Positions 22,771 through 56,070 of a DNA stretch of 64,000 nucleotides are shown here, in pieces. Within the stretch, counting starts at the first letter, position 1; every line of letters starts with the position of its first letter. The notes under the pieces are model-generated. The model did no database searches and had not been told where the DNA came from. It saw only the letters and a list, made by a program, of their open reading frames with translations. The translations under genes and the position numbers were made by a program. The DNA lies in NCBI RefSeq assembly GCF_058153355.1, contig NZ_CM177019.1. One strand, written 5' to 3'.

Positions 22771-24280
22771 ATGACTTTCCGTGTCAAACCGGAATCTCTA
22801 ATTTTGACGATTTTCTTTTTAGGTTTAATTCCCTGAGGGCGACGTAGCAGTAAATCCGACGGTGAATCACGCTGATATTCGCGGGTTGGATACCGCATTA
22901 CAGAGGTCCGTCATATGAGCCTGCCACTTTCTTACGTCGCGAATCAGCTTTGTTCCGCCGTCGCCAAGCGCTAACGTGGGTTACTCTTGTACCGGGCTAC
23001 GTCGCCTTCAGGGAACTGGTTATTCTCATTTTTTATTTGTGACATTGTGGTTGTTGTGCGACAGACATTGCTATTCGGCCCATATCCCAGATAAAACCCG
23101 CCAGCTCACGTGCAACAGCAACAATTGTAATATTGACATTCTTTCCTTTGGCCTGAAGTTTTCGATACCTCTTACAAAGCCTGAGTTGAGCATCCCATGC
23201 TCTGTCAATGACGGGGCGGGGTAAATTTTCCTGCCTTTTTTGTATTGCCGGACTGATGCGTGCCGGATGACGGTAACTCCACGCTGCCTCGACCAATAGC
23301 TTTCTGGCATAGCTGTTTCCGGCTTTGGTAATGCTGCCCTGATGTCTGCTTCCACCCGATGAATATTCTGATGGCGTGATACCAAACCATGACATCAGTT
23401 GTCGTGGATGTTCAAAACGGGTCAGATCACCCAGTTCAGAAATTAATCCAACCGCAGTAATAAACTGAATCCCTCGCATGGCTTGCAGCGCCTCTACTAC
23501 CGGATACAGCCTCCATTCGGTAACGGCCTCCTTCAGGGCGGATTCCAGCCGTTCACATTGTGCCTGCCGGTCTTCTATTGTACGACGGTGTTCGTCAAAA
23601 GCTAATTGTCGCCAGGGACTTTCGAATGAGTATTTGCTGAGCCAGCGTCGGTGTGCAGGGCCCCAATCTGCTCGCCCGACATAATGGACCCCATGAACCA
23701 GAAGAAACGATTTCAGACGTTGCCTTGCATGCCGTAAATCATCGCGGGCAGATGCCCATGCCCGGGCCAAATCCCGGAATGCCTCATCTTCAATGCCGGG
23801 TACGTAGACAGCAGAAAGATCTCCTGCACGCAGTGAACGCACAAGTCTGATGGCATCACGGCGATCGGTTTTAACCCGCTCCCCCGGTTTTTTCGGGATA
23901 AGTGAGGGGGCGCAGACCATGCAGTCAAAACCGGATTTCACCAGCCGACGATAAAGTCCATAACCACAGGGCCCCGCTTCATAAACGATACTGACCTGCG
24001 ATGACTTTGACCTGAGACGTTTACAAAGATTCTGAATATCAGTAGGTGATGTGCCAATTTTACCCATCAGTTCAACAGGTTCTGAATTGATAGCATAAGC
24101 GACAGTAATCGATTCTTTGTGAACATCTAACCCGACGTACAATGTGTTATTGTTGTTCATGCTGGCCTCCGTGGTGGAAATACCGGGGTGTAGCAACAGC
24201 TCACCCATGCGGCTCTGACAACGATGTTAACCCGCGTTAAATATCCCACGTTGGCCAGCATCTGTCTCACGGAAAGTCAT
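22771..24280 (-). mobile_element. IS110-family insertion sequence, copy 1 (about 1,510 bp, 13-bp imperfect terminal inverted repeats ATGACTTTCCGTG)
   Basis: Identical to copy 2 at 54561-56070 in inverted orientation; ends atgactttccgtg (22771) and cacggaaagtcat (24268-24280). Confidence 0.85.
23033..24160 (-). CDS. IS110-family DEDD transposase/recombinase
   Basis: ORF 23033-24208; start set at MNNNNTLYVGLDVHK; N-terminal RuvC-like DEDD region (GLDVHK, YEAGPCGY, DRRDA) and C-terminal IS110 domain (ITKAGNSYARKLL). Confidence 0.88.
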   Translation of the reverse strand: MNNNNTLYVGLDVHKESITVAYAINSEPVELMGKIGTSPTDIQNLCKRLRSKSSQVSIVYEAGPCGYGLYRRLVKSGFDCMVCAPSLIPKKPGERVKTDRRDAIRLVRSLRAGDLSAVYVPGIEDEAFRDLARAWASARDDLRHARQRLKSFLLVHGVHYVGRADWGPAHRRWLSKYSFESPWRQLAFDEHRRTIEDRQAQCERLESALKEAVTEWRLYPVVEALQAMRGIQFITAVGLISELGDLTRFEHPRQLMSWFGITPSEYSSGGSRHQGSITKAGNSYARKLLVEAAWSYRHPARISPAIQKRQENLPRPVIDRAWDAQLRLCKRYRKLQAKGKNVNITIVAVARELAGFIWDMGRIAMSVAQQPQCHK

Positions 24281-44214: not shown

Positions 44215-44874
44215 ATGAATCCGTCTGATGCCATTGAGGCAATTGAAAAACCGCTCTCCTCCCTGCCTTACTCACTTTCCCGTCACATCCTGGAACATCT
44301 GCGCAAACTCACCAGTCACGAACCCGTGCCTGGCATTATGGGTAAAAGCGGGGCCGGTAAATCCTCACTCTGTAATGCGCTGTTTCAGGGGGAGGTCACC
44401 CCGGTCAGTGATGTTCACGCCGGCACCCGGGAAGTGCAGCGCTTCCGTCTGAATGGCCATGGTCACAGCATGGTTATCACTGACCTGCCCGGGGTGGGCG
44501 AGAGCCGGGACAGGGATGCAGAGTATGAAGCCCTGTACCGTGACATTCTGCTCGAACTGGACCTGGTACTGTGGCTGATTAAAGCCGATGACCGTGCCCT
44601 GTCTGTGGATGAGTATTTCTGGCGACACATCCTGCACCGGGGACATCAGCGGGTACTGTTTGTGGTGATGCAGGCCGATAAAACGGAGCCCTGCCATGAA
44701 TGGGATATGGCCGGTATTCAGCCTTCTCCCGCAGAGGCACAGAACATTCGCGAAAAAACGGAGGCGGTATTCCGTCTGTTCCGGCCCGTACATCGGGTTG
44801 TTGCCGTATCGGCCCGCACCGGCTGGGAACTGAACCCGGTGGTGATGTACCAGGCTGTTGTTACAGATTTTTAA
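44215..44874 (+). CDS. Small GTPase of the YeeP/YfjP/YkfA island family
   Basis: Start MNPSDAIEAIE; P-loop GIMGKSGAGKSS, DLPG switch II, QADK-type G4; K-12 has yeeP at the equivalent island position. Confidence 0.8.
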   Translation: MNPSDAIEAIEKPLSSLPYSLSRHILEHLRKLTSHEPVPGIMGKSGAGKSSLCNALFQGEVTPVSDVHAGTREVQRFRLNGHGHSMVITDLPGVGESRDRDAEYEALYRDILLELDLVLWLIKADDRALSVDEYFWRHILHRGHQRVLFVVMQADKTEPCHEWDMAGIQPSPAEAQNIREKTEAVFRLFRPVHRVVAVSARTGWELNPVVMYQAVVTDF

Positions 44875-45050
44875 CTCCATGAAAACACTATGCAAACGCA
44901 GCCATACCCGGGTTGTCCCCTTGCGTTGTGTTTCTCAAGTTAATAGAATACATCAATCGTTACTATCATATCGATCGTTATAAACAATCGTTTGTAGTAA
45001 ATGACCTCCTCCGTGGTTGTCATGAAAATGCGTCTTAGGAAGGTTAAATA

Positions 45051-47447
45051 ATGCACGAAAAGAACATCGCCCTGCTTTGTGATGAAGCCGACCGACTTTT
45101 GCAACTGAACATTAATCTGCTCCGGCAAATGGTTGAGGAGCCAGATGTGTTATCTGACAGTAAGAACGAAAACAGACTGCTTTTTGATAAACAGAAAGCA
45201 CTGAAAAGAATTGAGGAGCTGGAGGGCGAACAAATCAAAACCGCCCGCAGGGAGATGGTGCTGGCTGTTGTCGGCACGATGAAAGCAGGCAAATCAACCA
45301 CCATCAACGCCATTGTGGGGCAGGAAATTCTGCCTAACCGTAACCGCCCCATGACCTCTGTACCGACGCTCATCCGCCACGTTCCCGGAAAAACTGAGCC
45401 GGTTCTCCATCTGGAACATATTCAGCCTGTCCGCAATTTATTAATCACACTGCAGGAAAAACTCGCCACCCCGGCAGGACAGCAGGTCGCACAGACCCTG
45501 CAGCAAACCGGGGATACCCGCGAACTGCTGGATATTCTGACGGATGATGGCTGGCTCAAAAATGAATACCACGGGGAGGAGGAAATCTTTACCGGACTGG
45601 CATCGTTAAACGATCTGGTTCGTCTTGCTGCGGCAATGGGGACTGAATTTCCTTTTGATGAATACGCAGAAGTGCAGAAACTGCCGGTGATCGACGTGGA
45701 ATTCAGCCATCTGGTGGGGATGGATGCATGCCAGGGAACACTCACACTGCTGGATACCCCCGGCCCTAATGAGGCCGGACAACCGCAGATGGAAGTGATG
45801 ATGCGGGATCAACTGCAGAAAGCCTCTGCGGTTCTGGCTGTGATGGATTACACCCAGATGAACTCAAAAGCGGATGAAGACGTCCGTAAAGAGCTTAATG
45901 CCATTGCTGACGTATCAGCCGGCCGCCTGTTTGTACTGGTCAATAAATTTGATGAGAAAGACCGCAATGGCGATGGGGCAGATGCCGTACGCCAGAAAGT
46001 TCCGGCAATGCTGAACAGCGATGTGCTGCCCGCCTCCCGCGTTTATCCCGGATCCTCACGCCAGGCATACCTGGCTAACCGTGCGCTTCATGAGTTACGG
46101 AAAAACGGAACCCTTCCTGTTGATGAAGCCTGGGTCGATGATTTTATCAGAGGTGCCTTCGGTTGCATGAAAAAAGAATACGTCTGTAAAGACAGTGAAC
46201 TGGCAACTGAAGGGGCGACAGACCTGTGGGAAGGCTCACTTATCGATCAACTGATAACGGAAGTCATACAGAGCTCACATTCCAGAGCTGCGGCACTGGC
46301 GGTTGACTCTGCCGCCGCAAAACTGATGCAGAATGCAGAAAATATCAGTGAATACCTGTTGTTACGCCATCAGGGGCTACAGCAAAGCATTCAGTCACTG
46401 CAGTCGCATATCACCAGCCTGCTTGCGGATATCCGGGAAATCGCGGACTGTCAGGAGCAGATGACCACTGATGTCAGAATGGCCATGGAGGAGATCGATA
46501 CTAAAACCCGGGAATTACTGACGGGGGTCTGCACCTCACTGGAAGAGGAGCTGAATGACTATTTCAGAAGCGGTAAACGCAAAGAACAGCAAATGCTGGA
46601 GGAAGAAGACGCAGAACAACGAAGGTCTCAGTCCGGATTATGGGGGAAAATTTCTCAATGGTCCGGTATCAACAACCAGGGCCGGGAGGATTACAGGAAA
46701 CGAGATTTTGCCCCGGACAGCCCCGAAATAAAATTCAGTGATCGCAGGGAAGCCCTTGAACTGATGACGCAAATCGAATCGACCGTGACCAGCCTGCACC
46801 GTGAGGCTGAAGCACAGTTCCGGCCTGAGCTGGAGAAAATCGTCAGCGGGATTGAAACAGGTTTTCGTGGCACGGCCCTGTACGCCACAGAAAACATTGC
46901 CGGTCGCATCAATGCCCGCCTGGAGGATGAGGGCTTTACCGTAAAAATCAGTTTTCCGGCAGTCAGCCAGTTACAGACCCGGCTCGCGGTAAAAATAAAT
47001 CTGAGTGCGCTTATGGAGGAAAGAACGGAGACCGTCACCCGTCGCCGTCGGCAGAGTGGCGTATGGGGAACCGTTTGTCGATGGTTTGGCACCAGTGACC
47101 TGGGCTGGGAAAACTATGACGAGGATGTGAGTCGCAGCGTGATCAATATCAACAAGGTCAGAGAGGAAGTTATGTCACTGACCCGGGCATATTTCGGGGA
47201 GCTGCAGGCATCCATTGAGCAGGATATTAACCAGCCCGTCCGCCAGGAAATCGATGCCTTTTTCTGCGCATTCAGGGAGAAAGTTGAACAACTGCGTAAC
47301 ACGCTGATTCAGAGCTCTGAAGATCATAAACGCGATCAGCAGGCGCAGGAACGGCTTACCGGGCGACTTCAGGCATTAAATGAAAGGGTTCCTGAGCTCA
47401 TTACTGACAGTAAGGCGCTGAGGGAAGAGCTGGAGACAATGCTGTGA
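45051..47447 (+). CDS. Bacterial dynamin-like large GTPase
   Basis: 798-aa ORF; GTPase motifs G1 GTMKAGKST, G3 DTPG, G4 NKFD in the N-terminal third; long helical, coiled-coil-rich C-terminal region; AGGAAGG RBS. Confidence 0.8.
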   Translation: MHEKNIALLCDEADRLLQLNINLLRQMVEEPDVLSDSKNENRLLFDKQKALKRIEELEGEQIKTARREMVLAVVGTMKAGKSTTINAIVGQEILPNRNRPMTSVPTLIRHVPGKTEPVLHLEHIQPVRNLLITLQEKLATPAGQQVAQTLQQTGDTRELLDILTDDGWLKNEYHGEEEIFTGLASLNDLVRLAAAMGTEFPFDEYAEVQKLPVIDVEFSHLVGMDACQGTLTLLDTPGPNEAGQPQMEVMMRDQLQKASAVLAVMDYTQMNSKADEDVRKELNAIADVSAGRLFVLVNKFDEKDRNGDGADAVRQKVPAMLNSDVLPASRVYPGSSRQAYLANRALHELRKNGTLPVDEAWVDDFIRGAFGCMKKEYVCKDSELATEGATDLWEGSLIDQLITEVIQSSHSRAAALAVDSAAAKLMQNAENISEYLLLRHQGLQQSIQSLQSHITSLLADIREIADCQEQMTTDVRMAMEEIDTKTRELLTGVCTSLEEELNDYFRSGKRKEQQMLEEEDAEQRRSQSGLWGKISQWSGINNQGREDYRKRDFAPDSPEIKFSDRREALELMTQIESTVTSLHREAEAQFRPELEKIVSGIETGFRGTALYATENIAGRINARLEDEGFTVKISFPAVSQLQTRLAVKINLSALMEERTETVTRRRRQSGVWGTVCRWFGTSDLGWENYDEDVSRSVININKVREEVMSLTRAYFGELQASIEQDINQPVRQEIDAFFCAFREKVEQLRNTLIQSSEDHKRDQQAQERLTGRLQALNERVPELITDSKALREELETML

Positions 47448-48349
47448 CTTCACCATTTATTCAACAAATTGCTGATAACCGGGTATGTCAGGTACTCACC
47501 TGTCTTCCTGAAAAATTTGTGGTTGATTTCGCAAACGGAATCGATGTTGCACAGGAGCATATCCGCACGGCCGGAGAGAGCACGTTCTTCCGGCGTTTAA
47601 AAGAGGGGCTGACCGGCGAAGGCGCTGCACGGCAGAATGCCATCAATGCGTCGCTTGCACAGGGCGTTGAGGCGTCCCTGCGCTGGCTGACGGAGATGAC
47701 AACGTCACTTGCCACCACAAACTACGCGATTACCCGGGTAAACGACAGGGTCAGTTCACTGGTCAGTGATACAGCCAGGCTGGCGCATTATTCCGCAGAT
47801 ACGCGGGAGCAGTTACTCACCCTGGCCGATCAGGTTCACCATAAACTGAATCATCTTGAAGAAAAACTCCACCGTGTTGACCAGGTTCAGCGGGCGCAGT
47901 TACATCTTGAGCAGATATTCTCATGGTGGAGCGCCGGGCGATATGCGTCATTTTCCCCTGCCGGACGTTGTTATGTGGCACTTGAAGAGCTTCGCTGGGG
48001 CGCGTTTGGTGATGTGATACGTCAGAGCGAAACAGGCCAGGTTAACCAGCTACTGGATATTCTCAGACATAAAGCATTAACGCAGATGGCACAGGAGAGT
48101 GGCGGTAGTGCAACCGTGCGTCTGAACACTCTGGACTGGCTTGGTGGTCAGGGCCGGGAGCAGGCAGATAACGAGTGGCATGACGCGATTAACTGGCTGG
48201 GAGACTGGTGCAGTGAAGAGCAGCATCCGGTGATCTGGTCAACCACGCAGGCTGCAGAACACTTACCGGTTCGCATGCCTCGCCTCTGCTCTGCAGAACG
48301 CCTCTCTGAAAGTATGGTCGATGAAATATTTCAGAAGGGGGCTGCATGA
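47444..48349 (+). CDS. Helical partner protein of the dynamin-like GTPase (no nucleotide-binding motif)
   Basis: 301-aa ORF; start overlaps upstream stop (ATGA) and its stop overlaps the downstream start. Confidence 0.7.
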   Translation: MTSPFIQQIADNRVCQVLTCLPEKFVVDFANGIDVAQEHIRTAGESTFFRRLKEGLTGEGAARQNAINASLAQGVEASLRWLTEMTTSLATTNYAITRVNDRVSSLVSDTARLAHYSADTREQLLTLADQVHHKLNHLEEKLHRVDQVQRAQLHLEQIFSWWSAGRYASFSPAGRCYVALEELRWGAFGDVIRQSETGQVNQLLDILRHKALTQMAQESGGSATVRLNTLDWLGGQGREQADNEWHDAINWLGDWCSEEQHPVIWSTTQAAEHLPVRMPRLCSAERLSESMVDEIFQKGAA

Positions 48350-49416
48350 GTACAGAAATGAAAACGGGGCTGGTGCTGTCCGGTGGCGGGGCGGTGGGCG
48401 CTTATCAGGCGGGAGTGGTTAAGGCACTGGCAGAGTGTGGTACACAGATCAGCATGGTTTCAGGGGCCAGCATTGGCGCATTCAATGGTGCCATTATCGC
48501 GGCCTCTCCCGATCTGTCAGAAGCTGCCGTACGCCTGGAGGCGCTCTGGGATCATCTGGGGAATAATCAGGTGCTGTCGGTAAACAGATTGGTTTACTTT
48601 TCATTGCTGAAAAAATTGTTCCAGGCAATGAACCTCTGCCAGATCCCCGGACGTGCAGGAGCACTGCTTACGACGCTTCTTCGCCATATATCGACAATCA
48701 ACGGGTTTGACAATCTGATGGCTCAGCCGTTGTTGTCAGATGAGCCCCTGACAGCGCTGATGGATCATTATCTTGATACTGATGCTCTGGCAGACGGGCT
48801 ACCGCTGTATGTGTCGCTGTACCCCACAGAAGGGGGCATGCAGGATATTATTGACTGCATTCGTGCTGAACTGGGTGTCGGAACCACGAAAAACGCCGTT
48901 TTTCAGCATATCCAGAGCCTGCCCCGCGGACAGCAGAAAGAGGCTCTGCTTGCGTCAGCCGCGCTGCCCCTGCTGTTCCGTCCCCGTGAGGTTCAGGGGA
49001 CAATGTTCGGTGATGGTGGTATGGGAGGATGGCGAAATATGCAGGGAAATACCCCTGTGACGCCTCTGGTCGATGCCGGATGCAATATGGTGATTGTGAC
49101 GCATCTGAGTGACGGTTCTTTATGGGATCGCCAGGCTTTTCCGGACACCACAATCCTTGAGATCCGTCCCCGGAAAAGGCTGAAATATGCAGGTGATGGT
49201 GGCAACAGCGGCGGTCTGCTCAGTTTTACATCGGCACATACCGACGCCTGGCGTCAGCAGGGCTATGAAGACACGATGCTGGCGATGGAGCATATCCGGA
49301 AACCGCTGGCAGCACGTCAGGCACTGACCCGGTCAGAGGCGGTATTGCAGAAAAGCCTGGATATAACGGAAGAGGCAGATTTGGCACTGAGAAACGCGAT
49401 GGCCCGGATTAAATAA
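48346..49416 (+). CDS. Patatin-like phospholipase
   Basis: 356-aa ORF with oxyanion-hole motif SGGGAVG, nucleophile elbow GASIG (GxSxG) and catalytic DGG (FGDGGMGG). Confidence 0.85.
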   Translation: MSTEMKTGLVLSGGGAVGAYQAGVVKALAECGTQISMVSGASIGAFNGAIIAASPDLSEAAVRLEALWDHLGNNQVLSVNRLVYFSLLKKLFQAMNLCQIPGRAGALLTTLLRHISTINGFDNLMAQPLLSDEPLTALMDHYLDTDALADGLPLYVSLYPTEGGMQDIIDCIRAELGVGTTKNAVFQHIQSLPRGQQKEALLASAALPLLFRPREVQGTMFGDGGMGGWRNMQGNTPVTPLVDAGCNMVIVTHLSDGSLWDRQAFPDTTILEIRPRKRLKYAGDGGNSGGLLSFTSAHTDAWRQQGYEDTMLAMEHIRKPLAARQALTRSEAVLQKSLDITEEADLALRNAMARIK

Positions 49417-49746
49417 AGACGCCCCAAAGAAACGCCACCGCCTGTGGTGGTGTTTTTCCTGTCTGGTGTTATTGAAAATATTTTCATATATATATTACCT
49501 GAGAGAAAGTTTTACCCCTCACCTGTCAATTCACTCACTGGAAATTTAATTATGAAATTACCTGTAAAGTTATTAATGAGCCTTATATCTCTGGTCAGCG
49601 TTATTGCACGTGCCGGGGAATATAAAAATTACAGCCGGGATGAAATAAAATACTGGCGATATACATCATACAAGGGGGGGAAACTTCCGGAAGGTTTCAC
49701 TGATGAGAAATTTTCCAGCGCCATTTACAACGGAAGAATATTTACA

Positions 49747-50235
49747 ATGAAACGTTTACATACCCTTATGTTATTTCTGGCGGTTCTGTTCACGGGCTTT
49801 AACTTTAACGCAGAAGCGGCTACCGTAAAACAAGCTCTTAGTTGTAACCCGGAAGCCTGGGCTGAACAACCTGGAGCGTGTCCATCAACGTACGAGTTGT
49901 ACGAAGGTGACGCTACCTACAAAGCCGCTATCGACAAAGCATTAAAACCGGTCGGACTGAGCGGCATGTTCGGTAAAGGCGGCTATATGGATGGCCCTGG
50001 TGGAGGTATCACGCCAGTAAACATTAACGGTACAGTCTGGTTCCAGGGCGACGGTTGCAAAGCCAATACCTGCGGCTGGGACTTTATCGTAACACTCTAT
50101 AACCCAAAAACCCATGAAGTTGTTGGCTACCGTTACTTTGGTTTAGATGACCCGGCCTACCTGGTTTGGTTCGGTGAAATTGGCGTGCATGAATTCGCGT
50201 ATCTGGTGAAAAACTACGTAGCTGCGGTTAACTAA
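49747..50235 (+). CDS. Secreted protein, possibly Ivy-like (inhibitor of vertebrate lysozyme fold)
   Basis: Signal peptide MKRLHTLMLFLAVLFTGFNFNAEA; loop GDGCKANTCGWDFIV resembles the Ivy CKPHDCG motif; same frame is open upstream to an ATG at 49552 with a second signal-like segment, so the start is uncertain. Confidence 0.5.
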   Translation: MKRLHTLMLFLAVLFTGFNFNAEAATVKQALSCNPEAWAEQPGACPSTYELYEGDATYKAAIDKALKPVGLSGMFGKGGYMDGPGGGITPVNINGTVWFQGDGCKANTCGWDFIVTLYNPKTHEVVGYRYFGLDDPAYLVWFGEIGVHEFAYLVKNYVAAVN

Positions 50236-50250
50236 TTTAAGGAGTCTATC

Positions 50251-50661
50251 ATGAAAACTTTTATCAAAACTTTACTCGTTGCTGTAACTATTCTGTTCTC
50301 TGTCTTCGCTACTGCGAAACAAGTAAAACTGCCAAATAACATCAAATACGTTAATACTACAGAAGCGTTTTCCTGTACCGAAATTGACGGTATGAATTGC
50401 CAGACAAAGAATCAGTTCAACTATAAAGATAACAGCTATGTTTTCGTGCTTGAACGTGGTGGTGCCTGGTGCTACGACTACACTGTCTCGGTAGTTAACC
50501 TGAAAACCGGGAAAGCACAAATGATTGAATACGGGGACAATCAACTGTGCTCAGGTAGCAACAAACCGTTCTTCGAAATCAAAAATGGCGTACCGACGGT
50601 AGGAGTCATCGACACATCCGGAAAACCTGTCGTTGTAGCCCAGGACAAACTTAAAATCTAA
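50251..50661 (+). CDS. Small secreted protein with four cysteines
   Basis: 136-aa ORF with signal peptide MKTFIKTLLVAVTILFSVFATA; AAGGAG RBS. Confidence 0.6.
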   Translation: MKTFIKTLLVAVTILFSVFATAKQVKLPNNIKYVNTTEAFSCTEIDGMNCQTKNQFNYKDNSYVFVLERGGAWCYDYTVSVVNLKTGKAQMIEYGDNQLCSGSNKPFFEIKNGVPTVGVIDTSGKPVVVAQDKLKI

Positions 50662-53570: not shown

Positions 53571-53944
53571 ATGAAAACATTACCTGTATTACCCGGGCAG
53601 GCGGCCAGTTCTCGCCCGTCTCCTGTTGAAATCTGGCAGATACTGCTGTCCCGACTGCTGGACCAGCACTATGGCCTCACACTGAATGACACACCTTTTG
53701 CCGATGAACGTGTGATTGAGCAGCATATTGAGGCAGGCATTTCACTGTGTGATGCGGTGAACTTTCTCGTGGAAAAATACGCGCTGGTGCTACCGACCAG
53801 CCGGGATTCAGCGCCTGTACCCGCTCTCAGTTAATAAACAGCATCGATATCCTCCGGGCTCGCAGGGCGACCGGCCTGATGACCCGCGACAATTACAGAA
53901 CGGTAAATAACATTACCCTGGGTAAGTATCCGGAGGCGAAATGA
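53571..53944 (+). pseudogene. cbtA: Type IV toxin CbtA (YeeV), frameshifted
   Basis: ORF stops at 53834 after 87 aa; N-terminus matches CbtA and the C-terminal third continues in another frame to TGA at 53942-53944. Confidence 0.7.
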
Positions 53945-54560: not shown

Positions 54561-56070
54561 ATGACTTTCCGTGAGACAGATGCTGGCCAACGTGGGATAT
54601 TTAACGCGGGTTAACATCGTTGTCAGAGCCGCATGGGTGAGCTGTTGCTACACCCCGGTATTTCCACCACGGAGGCCAGCATGAACAACAATAACACATT
54701 GTACGTCGGGTTAGATGTTCACAAAGAATCGATTACTGTCGCTTATGCTATCAATTCAGAACCTGTTGAACTGATGGGTAAAATTGGCACATCACCTACT
54801 GATATTCAGAATCTTTGTAAACGTCTCAGGTCAAAGTCATCGCAGGTCAGTATCGTTTATGAAGCGGGGCCCTGTGGTTATGGACTTTATCGTCGGCTGG
54901 TGAAATCCGGTTTTGACTGCATGGTCTGCGCCCCCTCACTTATCCCGAAAAAACCGGGGGAGCGGGTTAAAACCGATCGCCGTGATGCCATCAGACTTGT
55001 GCGTTCACTGCGTGCAGGAGATCTTTCTGCTGTCTACGTACCCGGCATTGAAGATGAGGCATTCCGGGATTTGGCCCGGGCATGGGCATCTGCCCGCGAT
55101 GATTTACGGCATGCAAGGCAACGTCTGAAATCGTTTCTTCTGGTTCATGGGGTCCATTATGTCGGGCGAGCAGATTGGGGCCCTGCACACCGACGCTGGC
55201 TCAGCAAATACTCATTCGAAAGTCCCTGGCGACAATTAGCTTTTGACGAACACCGTCGTACAATAGAAGACCGGCAGGCACAATGTGAACGGCTGGAATC
55301 CGCCCTGAAGGAGGCCGTTACCGAATGGAGGCTGTATCCGGTAGTAGAGGCGCTGCAAGCCATGCGAGGGATTCAGTTTATTACTGCGGTTGGATTAATT
55401 TCTGAACTGGGTGATCTGACCCGTTTTGAACATCCACGACAACTGATGTCATGGTTTGGTATCACGCCATCAGAATATTCATCGGGTGGAAGCAGACATC
55501 AGGGCAGCATTACCAAAGCCGGAAACAGCTATGCCAGAAAGCTATTGGTCGAGGCAGCGTGGAGTTACCGTCATCCGGCACGCATCAGTCCGGCAATACA
55601 AAAAAGGCAGGAAAATTTACCCCGCCCCGTCATTGACAGAGCATGGGATGCTCAACTCAGGCTTTGTAAGAGGTATCGAAAACTTCAGGCCAAAGGAAAG
55701 AATGTCAATATTACAATTGTTGCTGTTGCACGTGAGCTGGCGGGTTTTATCTGGGATATGGGCCGAATAGCAATGTCTGTCGCACAACAACCACAATGTC
55801 ACAAATAAAAAATGAGAATAACCAGTTCCCTGAAGGCGACGTAGCCCGGTACAAGAGTAACCCACGTTAGCGCTTGGCGACGGCGGAACAAAGCTGATTC
55901 GCGACGTAAGAAAGTGGCAGGCTCATATGACGGACCTCTGTAATGCGGTATCCAACCCGCGAATATCAGCGTGATTCACCGTCGGATTTACTGCTACGTC
56001 GCCCTCAGGGAATTAAACCTAAAAAGAAAATCGTCAAAATTAGAGATTCCGGTTTGACACGGAAAGTCAT
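54561..56070 (+). mobile_element. IS110-family insertion sequence, copy 2 (inverted relative to copy 1)
   Basis: Ends atgactttccgtg (54561) and cacggaaagtcat (to 56070); internal sequence identical to copy 1 over all inspected ORFs. Confidence 0.85.
54681..55808 (+). CDS. IS110-family DEDD transposase/recombinase
   Basis: Same 375-aa protein as copy 1; GGAGG RBS at 54671. Confidence 0.88.
   Translation: MNNNNTLYVGLDVHKESITVAYAINSEPVELMGKIGTSPTDIQNLCKRLRSKSSQVSIVYEAGPCGYGLYRRLVKSGFDCMVCAPSLIPKKPGERVKTDRRDAIRLVRSLRAGDLSAVYVPGIEDEAFRDLARAWASARDDLRHARQRLKSFLLVHGVHYVGRADWGPAHRRWLSKYSFESPWRQLAFDEHRRTIEDRQAQCERLESALKEAVTEWRLYPVVEALQAMRGIQFITAVGLISELGDLTRFEHPRQLMSWFGITPSEYSSGGSRHQGSITKAGNSYARKLLVEAAWSYRHPARISPAIQKRQENLPRPVIDRAWDAQLRLCKRYRKLQAKGKNVNITIVAVARELAGFIWDMGRIAMSVAQQPQCHK

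Follow-up and report, generated by a model that had tools for sequence, protein, structure and literature searches.

Organization of the three-gene operon

We analysed a stretch of 64,000 nucleotides (hereafter the window) from contig NZ_CM177019.1 of the assembly GCF_058153355.1, with the focus on an operon encoding a dynamin-like GTPase, an RdcB/YjcZ-family protein and a patatin-like phospholipase. The three open reading frames (ORFs) are intact and lie on the same strand, the second one starting with GTG, and both junctions are 4-nt stop/start overlaps, GTGA at 47444-47447 and ATGA at 48346-48349 (the letters around the overlaps read CTGTGACT and GCATGAGT). An initial annotation, made from the sequence alone, had proposed these ORFs with their coordinates and their translational coupling, and the re-reading agreed with it exactly; the start of the operon was, however, placed there at 44215, which is the start of an upstream YeeP-like GTPase gene, while the ORFs of the operon begin at 45051. 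As described in the following sections, these genes constitute a real module that is inherited strictly as a trio, and its catalytic residues are intact and conserved. The features of the operon are as follows, with the evidence in parentheses.

45051-47447, plus strand: RdcA/CrfC-like bacterial dynamin-like GTPase, 798 aa (Pfam, NCBIfam, BLASTP, AlphaFold2, Foldseek)
47444-48349, plus strand: RdcB/YjcZ-family partner protein, 301 aa (Pfam YjcZ, identity to K-12 RdcB, AlphaFold2 model)
48346-49416, plus strand: cytoplasmic patatin-like phospholipase, 356 aa (Pfam Patatin, invariant catalytic residues, fold matches)
45037-45043, plus strand: Shine-Dalgarno sequence AGGAAGG, 7 nt 5′ of the GTPase ATG (direct sequence reading)
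49436-49458, plus strand: intrinsic-terminator-like hairpin (49436-49452) followed by a T-run, closing the operon (terminator scan)

The dynamin-like GTPase

The Pfam profile search that the initial annotation had suggested as a check identified Dynamin_N in the product of the first gene (E=1.6e-17) and Patatin in that of the third (E=7.4e-24). The GTPase motifs G1 (GTMKAGKST, residues 75-83), G3 (DTPG, 235-238) and G4 (NKFD, 298-301), already noticed in that annotation, and the G2 threonine T102 were found without variation across 25 orthologues. The protein aligned end to end with the NCBIfam model NF007368 for CrfC (also known as YjdA or RdcA), with a score of 556 bits that does not reach the equivalog cut-off of 1146, and the identity with RdcA of Escherichia coli K-12 was 33% over 744 residues by BLASTP. 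Its G domain (about residues 68-335) is followed by a long helical stalk and then by a β-hairpin tip (656-699), and the AlphaFold2 (AF2) model of the GTPase alone, built from 28 sequences with a mean predicted local distance difference test (pLDDT) score of 79, displays the same G domain, stalk helices of 60-80 residues and the β-hairpin tip. Using this model, Foldseek detected full-length matches to BDLP (1e-12), SynDLP, IniA, mitofusins, Cj-DLP1/2 and LeoA (structure 4aur, E=2e-6), the template modelling (TM) scores being only about 0.3 because the conformations differ. A solved structure was not found among the relatives of either the GTPase or the YjcZ protein.

The best-conserved element in the C-terminal half of the GTPase is the basic and Trp-rich tip motif RRRR..WG..C.WF..D(W)GWE.Y (664-689), which is common to K-12 RdcA and is plausible as a membrane contact. 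The protein fits the dynamin-like proteins (DLPs) of bacteria by its G domain with the G1-G4 motifs and by its helical neck/trunk stalk, and among its features the tip motif alone would point to membrane binding or self-assembly. K-12 RdcA has QLxLL strings that resemble clamp-binding motifs and are putative CrfC motifs, and in the window clade they are not retained; this comparison is only indicative. In a metagenome-assembled genome labelled as Synergistaceae (L032:1290-6356), the trio has a GTPase of 1688 aa in which two RdcA-like modules are fused in tandem, an arrangement that recalls DynA of Bacillus subtilis.

These properties would also be expected if the operon served the maintenance or remodelling of membranes, in which the DLP binds to damaged or curved inner membrane in the manner of DynA or IniA, the lipase aids repair, fission or LeoA-like vesicle release by supplying lysolipids and fatty acids or by removing damaged lipids, and any effect on phage is indirect. 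The full-length fold matches, the conserved tip, the DynA-like tandem in one lineage and the presence of the cassette in free-living environmental bacteria with no obvious island context are all in agreement with such a role, but RdcA, the closest characterised relative, has been reported to be a soluble signalling switch, and the patchy, island-borne and multi-copy distribution of the cassette, together with the recurrent adjacency to Juk, restriction-modification (R-M), PDC and WYL genes (see below), is unexpected for housekeeping repair. Altogether we regard this role as a real but minor possibility.

The RdcB-like partner protein

The Pfam family YjcZ covers the 301-aa protein from end to end (E=4.4e-70), and the identity with K-12 RdcB (YjcZ) was 30% over 281 residues by BLASTP. 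Judging from the sequences, genes 1 and 2 are deep paralogues of the K-12 rdcA(yjdA/crfC)-rdcB(yjcZ) operon, which encodes a GTPase switch for the control of a diguanylate cyclase. This kinship (33% and 30% identity), from which the best model of the mechanism derives, was missed in the initial annotation. The middle protein had been described there as helical, and a long helix is indeed present, but the family, Pfam YjcZ/RdcB, was not recognised. In the AF2 model of a fusion, RdcB-(GGGGS)6-patatin, made with 25 paired sequences, one helix of about 105 residues is followed by a globular C-terminal domain with the motif ELRWGAFGD, while the N-terminal peptide CLPEKFVVDFANGIDV (residues 18-35) is strongly conserved and modelled with low confidence. 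The RdcB part of this model gave no match in the fold search, and PADLOC v2 contains no model for the middle protein. The YjcZ family comprises 466 clusters at 50% identity among 1.84 billion proteins, and of the 150 best-scoring clusters, 138 scored higher with the lipase-linked profile than with the K-12-type one. In RefSeq, the products of the operon are labelled 'dynamin family protein', 'diguanylate cyclase regulator RdcB family protein' and 'patatin-like phospholipase family protein'.

The patatin-like phospholipase

The 356-aa lipase carries the oxyanion glycines GGG at 13-15, the nucleophile motif G40-A-S42-I-G44 and the motif D223-G-G, with Ser42 and Asp223 forming the catalytic dyad. 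The GGGxxG, GxSxG and DGG motifs pointed out in the initial annotation are all present, and G13-G15, Ser42 and Asp223 showed no variation in 28 sequences. The C terminus is a helix of about 60 residues in the AF2 fusion model. The fold matches included PlpD (TM 0.62 on target), CapV and CapE of the cyclic-oligonucleotide-based antiphage signalling system (CBASS), VipD (complexed with Rab5) as well as ExoU, the closest folds being PlpD and the CBASS suicide lipases CapV and CapE; VipD is also among the sequence relatives. The match with the NCBIfam model CBASS_lipase was 18.3 bits against a cut-off of 200, and the CBASS lipase effector profiles of PADLOC v2 gave weak matches (about 1e-4). Neither a signal peptide nor a translocator domain was found in the lipase, which would therefore act on the inner membrane of its own cell, as CapV and CapE do.

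With PlpD, VipD and ExoU among the nearest relatives in sequence and fold, and with the cassette located on pathogenicity-type islands of uropathogenic and Shiga toxin-producing E. coli, one may ask whether the lipase is a virulence or antibacterial effector, exported onto the membranes of host or competitor. We consider such a role very unlikely, as the lipase has no signal peptide or translocator domain and the conserved unit no secretion-system genes, and as the trio is carried also by methanotrophs, iron oxidisers and purple sulfur bacteria and by the probiotic strain Nissle 1917.

Distribution and co-inheritance of the three genes

By megablast, the cassette was detected (at least 80% of its length) in 2442 of 5426 complete E. 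coli genomes, or about 45%, including Nissle 1917, O157:H7 and ST131, with up to five copies per genome. For a survey across species, the YjcZ alignment was searched against one genome per species, and the 79 loci thus obtained were divided by phmmer into the window type and the K-12 type. The order Dynamin-YjcZ-Patatin was the same at all 28 window-type loci, wherever the DNA reaches far enough, whereas a patatin gene was found at none of the 51 K-12-type rdcAB loci, all of them in Enterobacteriaceae. The window-type genera include Pantoea, Erwinia, Budvicia, Pseudomonas (six species), Allochromatium, Thiodictyon, Methylomonas, Gallionella, Macromonas, Aquaspirillum, Paenacidovorax, Yanghanlia, strain HdN1 and others, and the clade is conserved across Gamma- and Betaproteobacteria. 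Independent look-ups of precomputed Pfam labels recovered the trio in Methylomonas, Pseudomonas aestuarii, Allochromatium, Pectobacterium and a Yersinia-like sample, and the trio is kept even in a distant metagenomic member (E about 1e-38 to the family profile). The 4-nt overlaps are retained at most junctions of the trio across the loci. The lack of co-occurrence in other genomes, which the initial annotation had named as an outcome that would speak against it, is decisively not what this survey gave.

Clustering of the flanking ORFs identified no fourth gene generally linked to the trio, and neither the two secreted proteins encoded downstream in the window nor the YeeP-like GTPase is linked to the cassette outside Escherichia. 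In Methylomonas an additional 99-aa ORF with no family match lies between the dynamin and YjcZ genes (L004:7617-7916 and L005:1774-2073). Besides next to defence genes, the cassette was located in integrase/DUF927 islands, in CP4-type islands and on plasmids. On a midpoint-rooted neighbour-joining tree, the lipase-linked and K-12 types form two sister clades with no polarity between them, and the idea that K-12 rdcAB is a derived, lipase-less offshoot nested within the lipase clade was not kept on this ground. A possible second architecture, in which a DUF3944(YaaW)-YjcZ fusion gene precedes the patatin gene and no dynamin gene is present, was observed in one genome (L093:8001-10630); it carries little weight, as this fusion occurs only once among 5.8 billion proteins.

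The ratio of nonsynonymous to synonymous substitution (dN/dS) was 0.24-0.33 among E. coli alleles and 0.08-0.10 in the comparison with Pectobacterium; purifying selection acts on the genes. The cassette moves horizontally and often adjoins defence genes. The GTPase alleles of E. coli differ mostly at the stalk residues 351-600, where dN/dS is 0.3-0.6, in contrast to a value of 0.05 for the G domain; as dN/dS never exceeded 1, the possibility that the stalk is under positive selection was rejected. A comparison of 45051-47447 with L096 and L095 indicated that the GTPase alleles are recombination mosaics (for O157, dS is 0.27 over codons 2-350 and 0 over codons 601-798), and because dS varies along the gene, such mosaicism explains much of the stalk pattern.

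Genes adjacent to the cassette outside Escherichia

The genes immediately flanking the cassette were identified with PADLOC, and defence-associated immediate neighbours were found at about 11 of 27 non-Escherichia loci, a raw count and not a measure of enrichment. They include JukAB, type I R-M, PDC-S04, PDC-S17, PDC-S24 and PDC-S48, and regulators with the domains HTH-WYL-WCX. In Erwinia, JukA (2e-58) and JukB (4e-112) start 40 nt past the lipase gene; in Pseudomonas sp. P7548, JukA (1e-31) lies downstream; and in Pantoea conspicua, JukA-like fragments adjoin the cassette. The cassette is adjoined in P. putida by a type I R-M methylase (1.5e-188) and specificity subunit (1e-69), and is flanked in strain HdN1 by PDC-S24 (2.8e-178) and DEDDh/PDC-S48. 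In Allochromatium, PDC-S17 (1e-62) and PDC-S04/SoFic (1e-28) adjoin it, and together with these the cassette is wedged between ileS and lspA. An HTH-WYL-WCX regulator of the BrxR/CapW type is encoded upstream on the same strand at five loci of five genera (P. aestuarii, Macromonas, Aquaspirillum, Paenacidovorax and Gallionella); this regulator family co-localises with defence islands (PMC9122601, in which dynamin and patatin are not mentioned).

At three loci of three genera (L034:10004-11784, L019:9993-10730 and L010:10034-10840), JukA follows the lipase gene by 40-60 nt, accompanied by JukB in Erwinia, and it is worth asking whether this tight spacing reflects co-transcription or cooperation of the two systems. 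Directly upstream of the cassette in Pantoea conspicua (L010:942-5483) and Erwinia (L034:906-5471), a conserved pair of genes on the same strand encodes a protein of 655-663 aa, with a weak ZacB-like match, and an 857-aa SNF2-family helicase; the pair may be another defence candidate.

A predicted agn43-type phase switch upstream of the operon

The region upstream of the GTPase gene carries the following feature, identified by alignment with K-12 flu, O157 cah and the regions upstream of the dynamin gene in Nissle and E. albertii.

44925-45010, plus strand: region homologous to the Dam-OxyR switch of agn43 (flu) and cah

Expression of agn43 is controlled by competition between Dam methylation of its GATC sites and repression by OxyR. 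Over the 86 nt that precede the GTPase gene, the sequence can be aligned with the operators of flu and cah so that the three Dam GATC sites are in register, and the promoter scan detected a promoter-like sequence TTAATA-18-TATCAT at 44940-44969. In the window, site I (44955-44958) reads AATC, site II (44973-44976) GATC and site III (44986-44989) AATC, the G-to-A changes falling exactly on the G of sites I (44955) and III (44986), whereas all three sites are kept in 8 of 8 other E. coli strains inspected, which are otherwise nearly identical there. The two AATC sequences may mark a locked allele of the phase switch, or they may be base-calling errors related to an atypical methylation of the GATC sites. 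The junction between switch and dynamin gene was found in 1976 genomes. From the competition known for agn43, phase-variable expression is predicted for most carriers and an altered, perhaps locked, state for the window; in most E. coli carriers, expression of the operon is probably phase-variable, with transcription predicted to start at the agn43-type switch. The operon exhibited the strongest up-regulation in Kapi1 lysogens in a study that did not consider phase variation (PMC12922286). A switch of this type suggests phase-variable immunity, and the published 'induction in lysogens' could alternatively be explained by it.

The same switch type drives the biofilm adhesin Ag43, and this fact, together with the full-length homology to RdcA and RdcB and the agreeing RefSeq names, would fit the possibility that the pair is a signalling paralogue that controls an enzyme bound to the membrane, for instance a diguanylate cyclase, with the lipase as a regulated output of lipid signalling or turnover for biofilm or motility. 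The identity to the K-12 proteins is, however, only 30-33% and the two clades are cleanly apart; the linkage of the lipase (28/28 against 0/51 for rdcAB) argues that the lipase is the cognate output; and the cassette is present in taxa and on plasmids with no evident DgcE context. We find this possibility improbable.

Island context in the window

The order of genes in the island is YeeP-like GTPase, cassette, two small secreted proteins, DUF932, antirestriction, yeeS, yeeT, cbeA, cbtA (frameshifted) and yeeW, to be compared with yeeP, isrC, flu, yeeR and yeeS in K-12 CP4-44, and in close relatives the same island is located between cobU and tmaR/yeeA, which is the CP4-44 site. The initial annotation had described this context, with the YeeP-like gene upstream and the module from DUF932 to yeeW downstream, correctly. 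It had also placed the operon in the slot of Ag43, and the operon is indeed fused to a putative agn43-type promoter and GATC switch; this is only half of the picture, for O157:H7 retains the Ag43 homologue cah and has the cassette downstream of it. In Pectobacterium the cassette occupies the far end of a CP4-like island. One further feature belongs to the backbone of the island, outside the conserved cassette.

44215-44874, plus strand: YeeP-like small GTPase gene (3′ truncation seen against L001 and L087)

About 252 bp are deleted at the 3′ end of this gene relative to other strains, and the intergenic region that precedes the dynamin gene is intact. The two genes directly after the operon (49552-50235 and 50251-50661) encode signal peptides and are low in GC content (43-45%); they gave no match in Pfam, NCBIfam or PADLOC, and beyond E. 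coli, E. albertii included, they are not linked with the cassette. The toxin gene cbtA (53571-53834) is frameshifted, encoding 87 aa against about 124, a defect that RefSeq flags also in related strains, and the antitoxin gene cbeA is intact. Inverted copies of an insertion sequence (IS) of the IS110 family, at 23033-24208 on the minus strand and 54633-55808 on the plus strand, bracket the island of about 30 kb and enclose 24286-54523, and the island is inverted relative to the flanking his/yee and cob/ldtA genes in comparison with THO-010, WCHEC040047 and K-12. The inversion looks IS-mediated.

In Enterobacteriaceae the cassette is always cargo of islands or plasmids, next to the CbtA/CbeA toxin-antitoxin and antirestriction genes, and it encodes a potentially lethal enzyme. 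A selfish role in the maintenance of the element or in competition may be supposed on this basis, either as an addiction-type lipase toxin with protein regulators or as a module for exclusion of other plasmids or islands. Many loci outside the enterobacteria have no mobile-element genes nearby, though, a 798-aa GTPase would be an elaborate antitoxin, and the specific neighbours of the cassette are phage-defence genes, so that we consider this role doubtful, and about as improbable as that in signalling.

Predicted function of the operon

The three-gene block is often located beside anti-phage genes and is widely conserved, and therefore the operon is probably an uncharacterised defence module and not a chance gene neighbourhood. 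We propose that the trio works as one functional module, carried as cargo of mobile islands, and that it is most likely an anti-phage defence of the abortive-infection type with a GTPase-gated phospholipase, a proposal to which we give about an even chance. The defence function, the order of signalling and the trigger are what we infer. The initial annotation had proposed defence by a dynamin-gated lipase; the idea of defence gains support from the neighbour genes, while the gating by dynamin is, as before, what we infer from the gene set.

Under this proposal, the RdcA-like dynamin GTPase would serve as a switch of nucleotide state or assembly, and the obligate RdcB/YjcZ-type partner would link it to the cytoplasmic patatin phospholipase. 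The lipase would be held inactive until a trigger, for which infection, a fall in the GTP pool or perturbation of the membrane are candidates, alters the state of the GTPase, and it would then hydrolyse inner-membrane phospholipids from the inside. When the logic of RdcA/RdcB is transferred to the window proteins, the lipase, whose gene always accompanies the window clade, is the likely output. The pair VipD-Rab5 provides a precedent for the activation of a patatin lipase by a GTPase.

A more direct immune device, aimed at membranes and not at the suicide of the cell, may also be imagined, in which the GTPase recognises a non-self state of membrane within the cell (for example, the strongly curved lipid vesicles or the lesions that arise on injection by certain phages such as jumbo phages), the RdcB-like adaptor brings the lipase to it and the phage compartment is destroyed, the expression being phase-variable from the agn43-type switch and K-12 RdcA/RdcB being a lipase-less sister recruited to cyclic di-GMP signalling. 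We hold this version to be unlikely.

Several observations weigh against the proposed abortive-infection module. PADLOC v2 has no model for the whole system, and the argument from defence islands is therefore guilt by association; no defence genes adjoin the cassette in Methylomonas, in Yersinia and on an IncFIA plasmid. As the K-12 pair RdcA/RdcB serves housekeeping signalling, its paralogue could also be regulatory. With up to five copies of the lipase gene per genome, very tight control would be needed if the enzyme is lethal. The RdcB-linker-patatin fusion was modelled with a pLDDT of 73 and a predicted TM score of 0.52, and thus no confident interface is predicted. In the literature searched, neither a functional report nor an experimental test of protection was found. 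The absence of the cassette from 50,697 phage records is listed here as well, although it is neutral in itself.

If the abortive-infection proposal is confirmed, about 45% of the complete E. coli genomes would carry in this operon an immune module that is very common and yet uncharacterised, with an undescribed logic in which a dynamin-family GTPase switch controls a phospholipase effector. It would also provide a functional context for the YjcZ family, and K-12 RdcA/RdcB would have to be seen as sister to a lineage that is linked with a lipase.

Comparison with known systems

The K-12 RdcA-RdcB pair is the closest to the window operon, for in both a full-length homologous dynamin-like GTPase is followed by a translationally coupled YjcZ-family protein, and the G1-G4 motifs, the catalytic Thr (T102 in the window, T103 in RdcA) and the basic/Trp tip motif are present in both clades. 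The window proteins differ by the low identity of only 33% and 30%, by their position in a separate sister clade with the GTPase below the CrfC cut-off, and by the patatin as third gene (28/28 against 0/51). Furthermore, the K-12 genes form a two-gene operon at the core phn-proP position under a promoter of the flagellar regulon, whereas the window cassette has three genes, is borne on islands or plasmids and is headed by a putative agn43-type switch. In K-12, RdcA has RdcB and the MASE1 domain of DgcE as binding partners and was reported to be a soluble signalling switch, inactive in the GTP-bound form and activating in the nucleotide-free form, with GTP hydrolysis being required (PMC6510439).

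Eleos (LeoA/LeoBC, formerly 'Dynamins') shares with the window operon a bacterial dynamin-like GTPase and the location on islands in E. coli, but it pairs two or three dynamin-like proteins and has neither lipase nor YjcZ protein, while the window operon has a single DLP gene. In agreement with the view of the initial annotation that the operon is not LeoA/LeoBC, the PADLOC v2 scan of the GTPase gave a LeoBC match limited to 60 residues around the P-loop (29-89, E=8.6e-5) and no match to the LeoA profile. With CBASS, as represented by CapV and CapE, the operon has in common a patatin lipase that is cytoplasmic and has an identical catalytic dyad, a lethal, membrane-degrading enzyme that must stay inactive until a signal arrives. 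The activator in CBASS is a nucleotide second messenger, whereas that proposed here is the pair of GTPase and YjcZ protein; no CD-NTase cyclase was found in or beside the window operon, and no cyclic-nucleotide sensor in it.

VipD of Legionella is likewise a patatin phospholipase with a GTPase partner, and it matches the window lipase both in sequence and in fold. Its activity is switched on by binding the GTPase Rab5 (as the title of 4kyi in the PDB also states). As a secreted effector, VipD uses a small GTPase of the host, in contrast to the bacterial, cytoplasmic proteins of the window with their large dynamin-like GTPase and a third protein that is always present. DynA of B. subtilis, a dynamin-like protein for which a population-level phage-protective effect is cited in PMC12922286, resembles the tandem double GTPase in one lineage of the window family, but it works alone by membrane repair or stabilisation, with no lipase and no YjcZ partner.

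By these comparisons, the operon belongs to none of Eleos, CBASS and RdcAB proper, as far as its sequences indicate. The initial annotation had recognised no named system in it, which holds in that PADLOC has no model for the middle gene, but a transcriptome paper of 2026 had already pointed to the operon as a possible defence system of the dynamin type, with no test of it (PMC12922286), and a second paper lists its genes within an island. The operon is uncharacterised, though already annotated and once described, and in comparison with the known systems it would be a combination of dynamin-family defence with a patatin effector.

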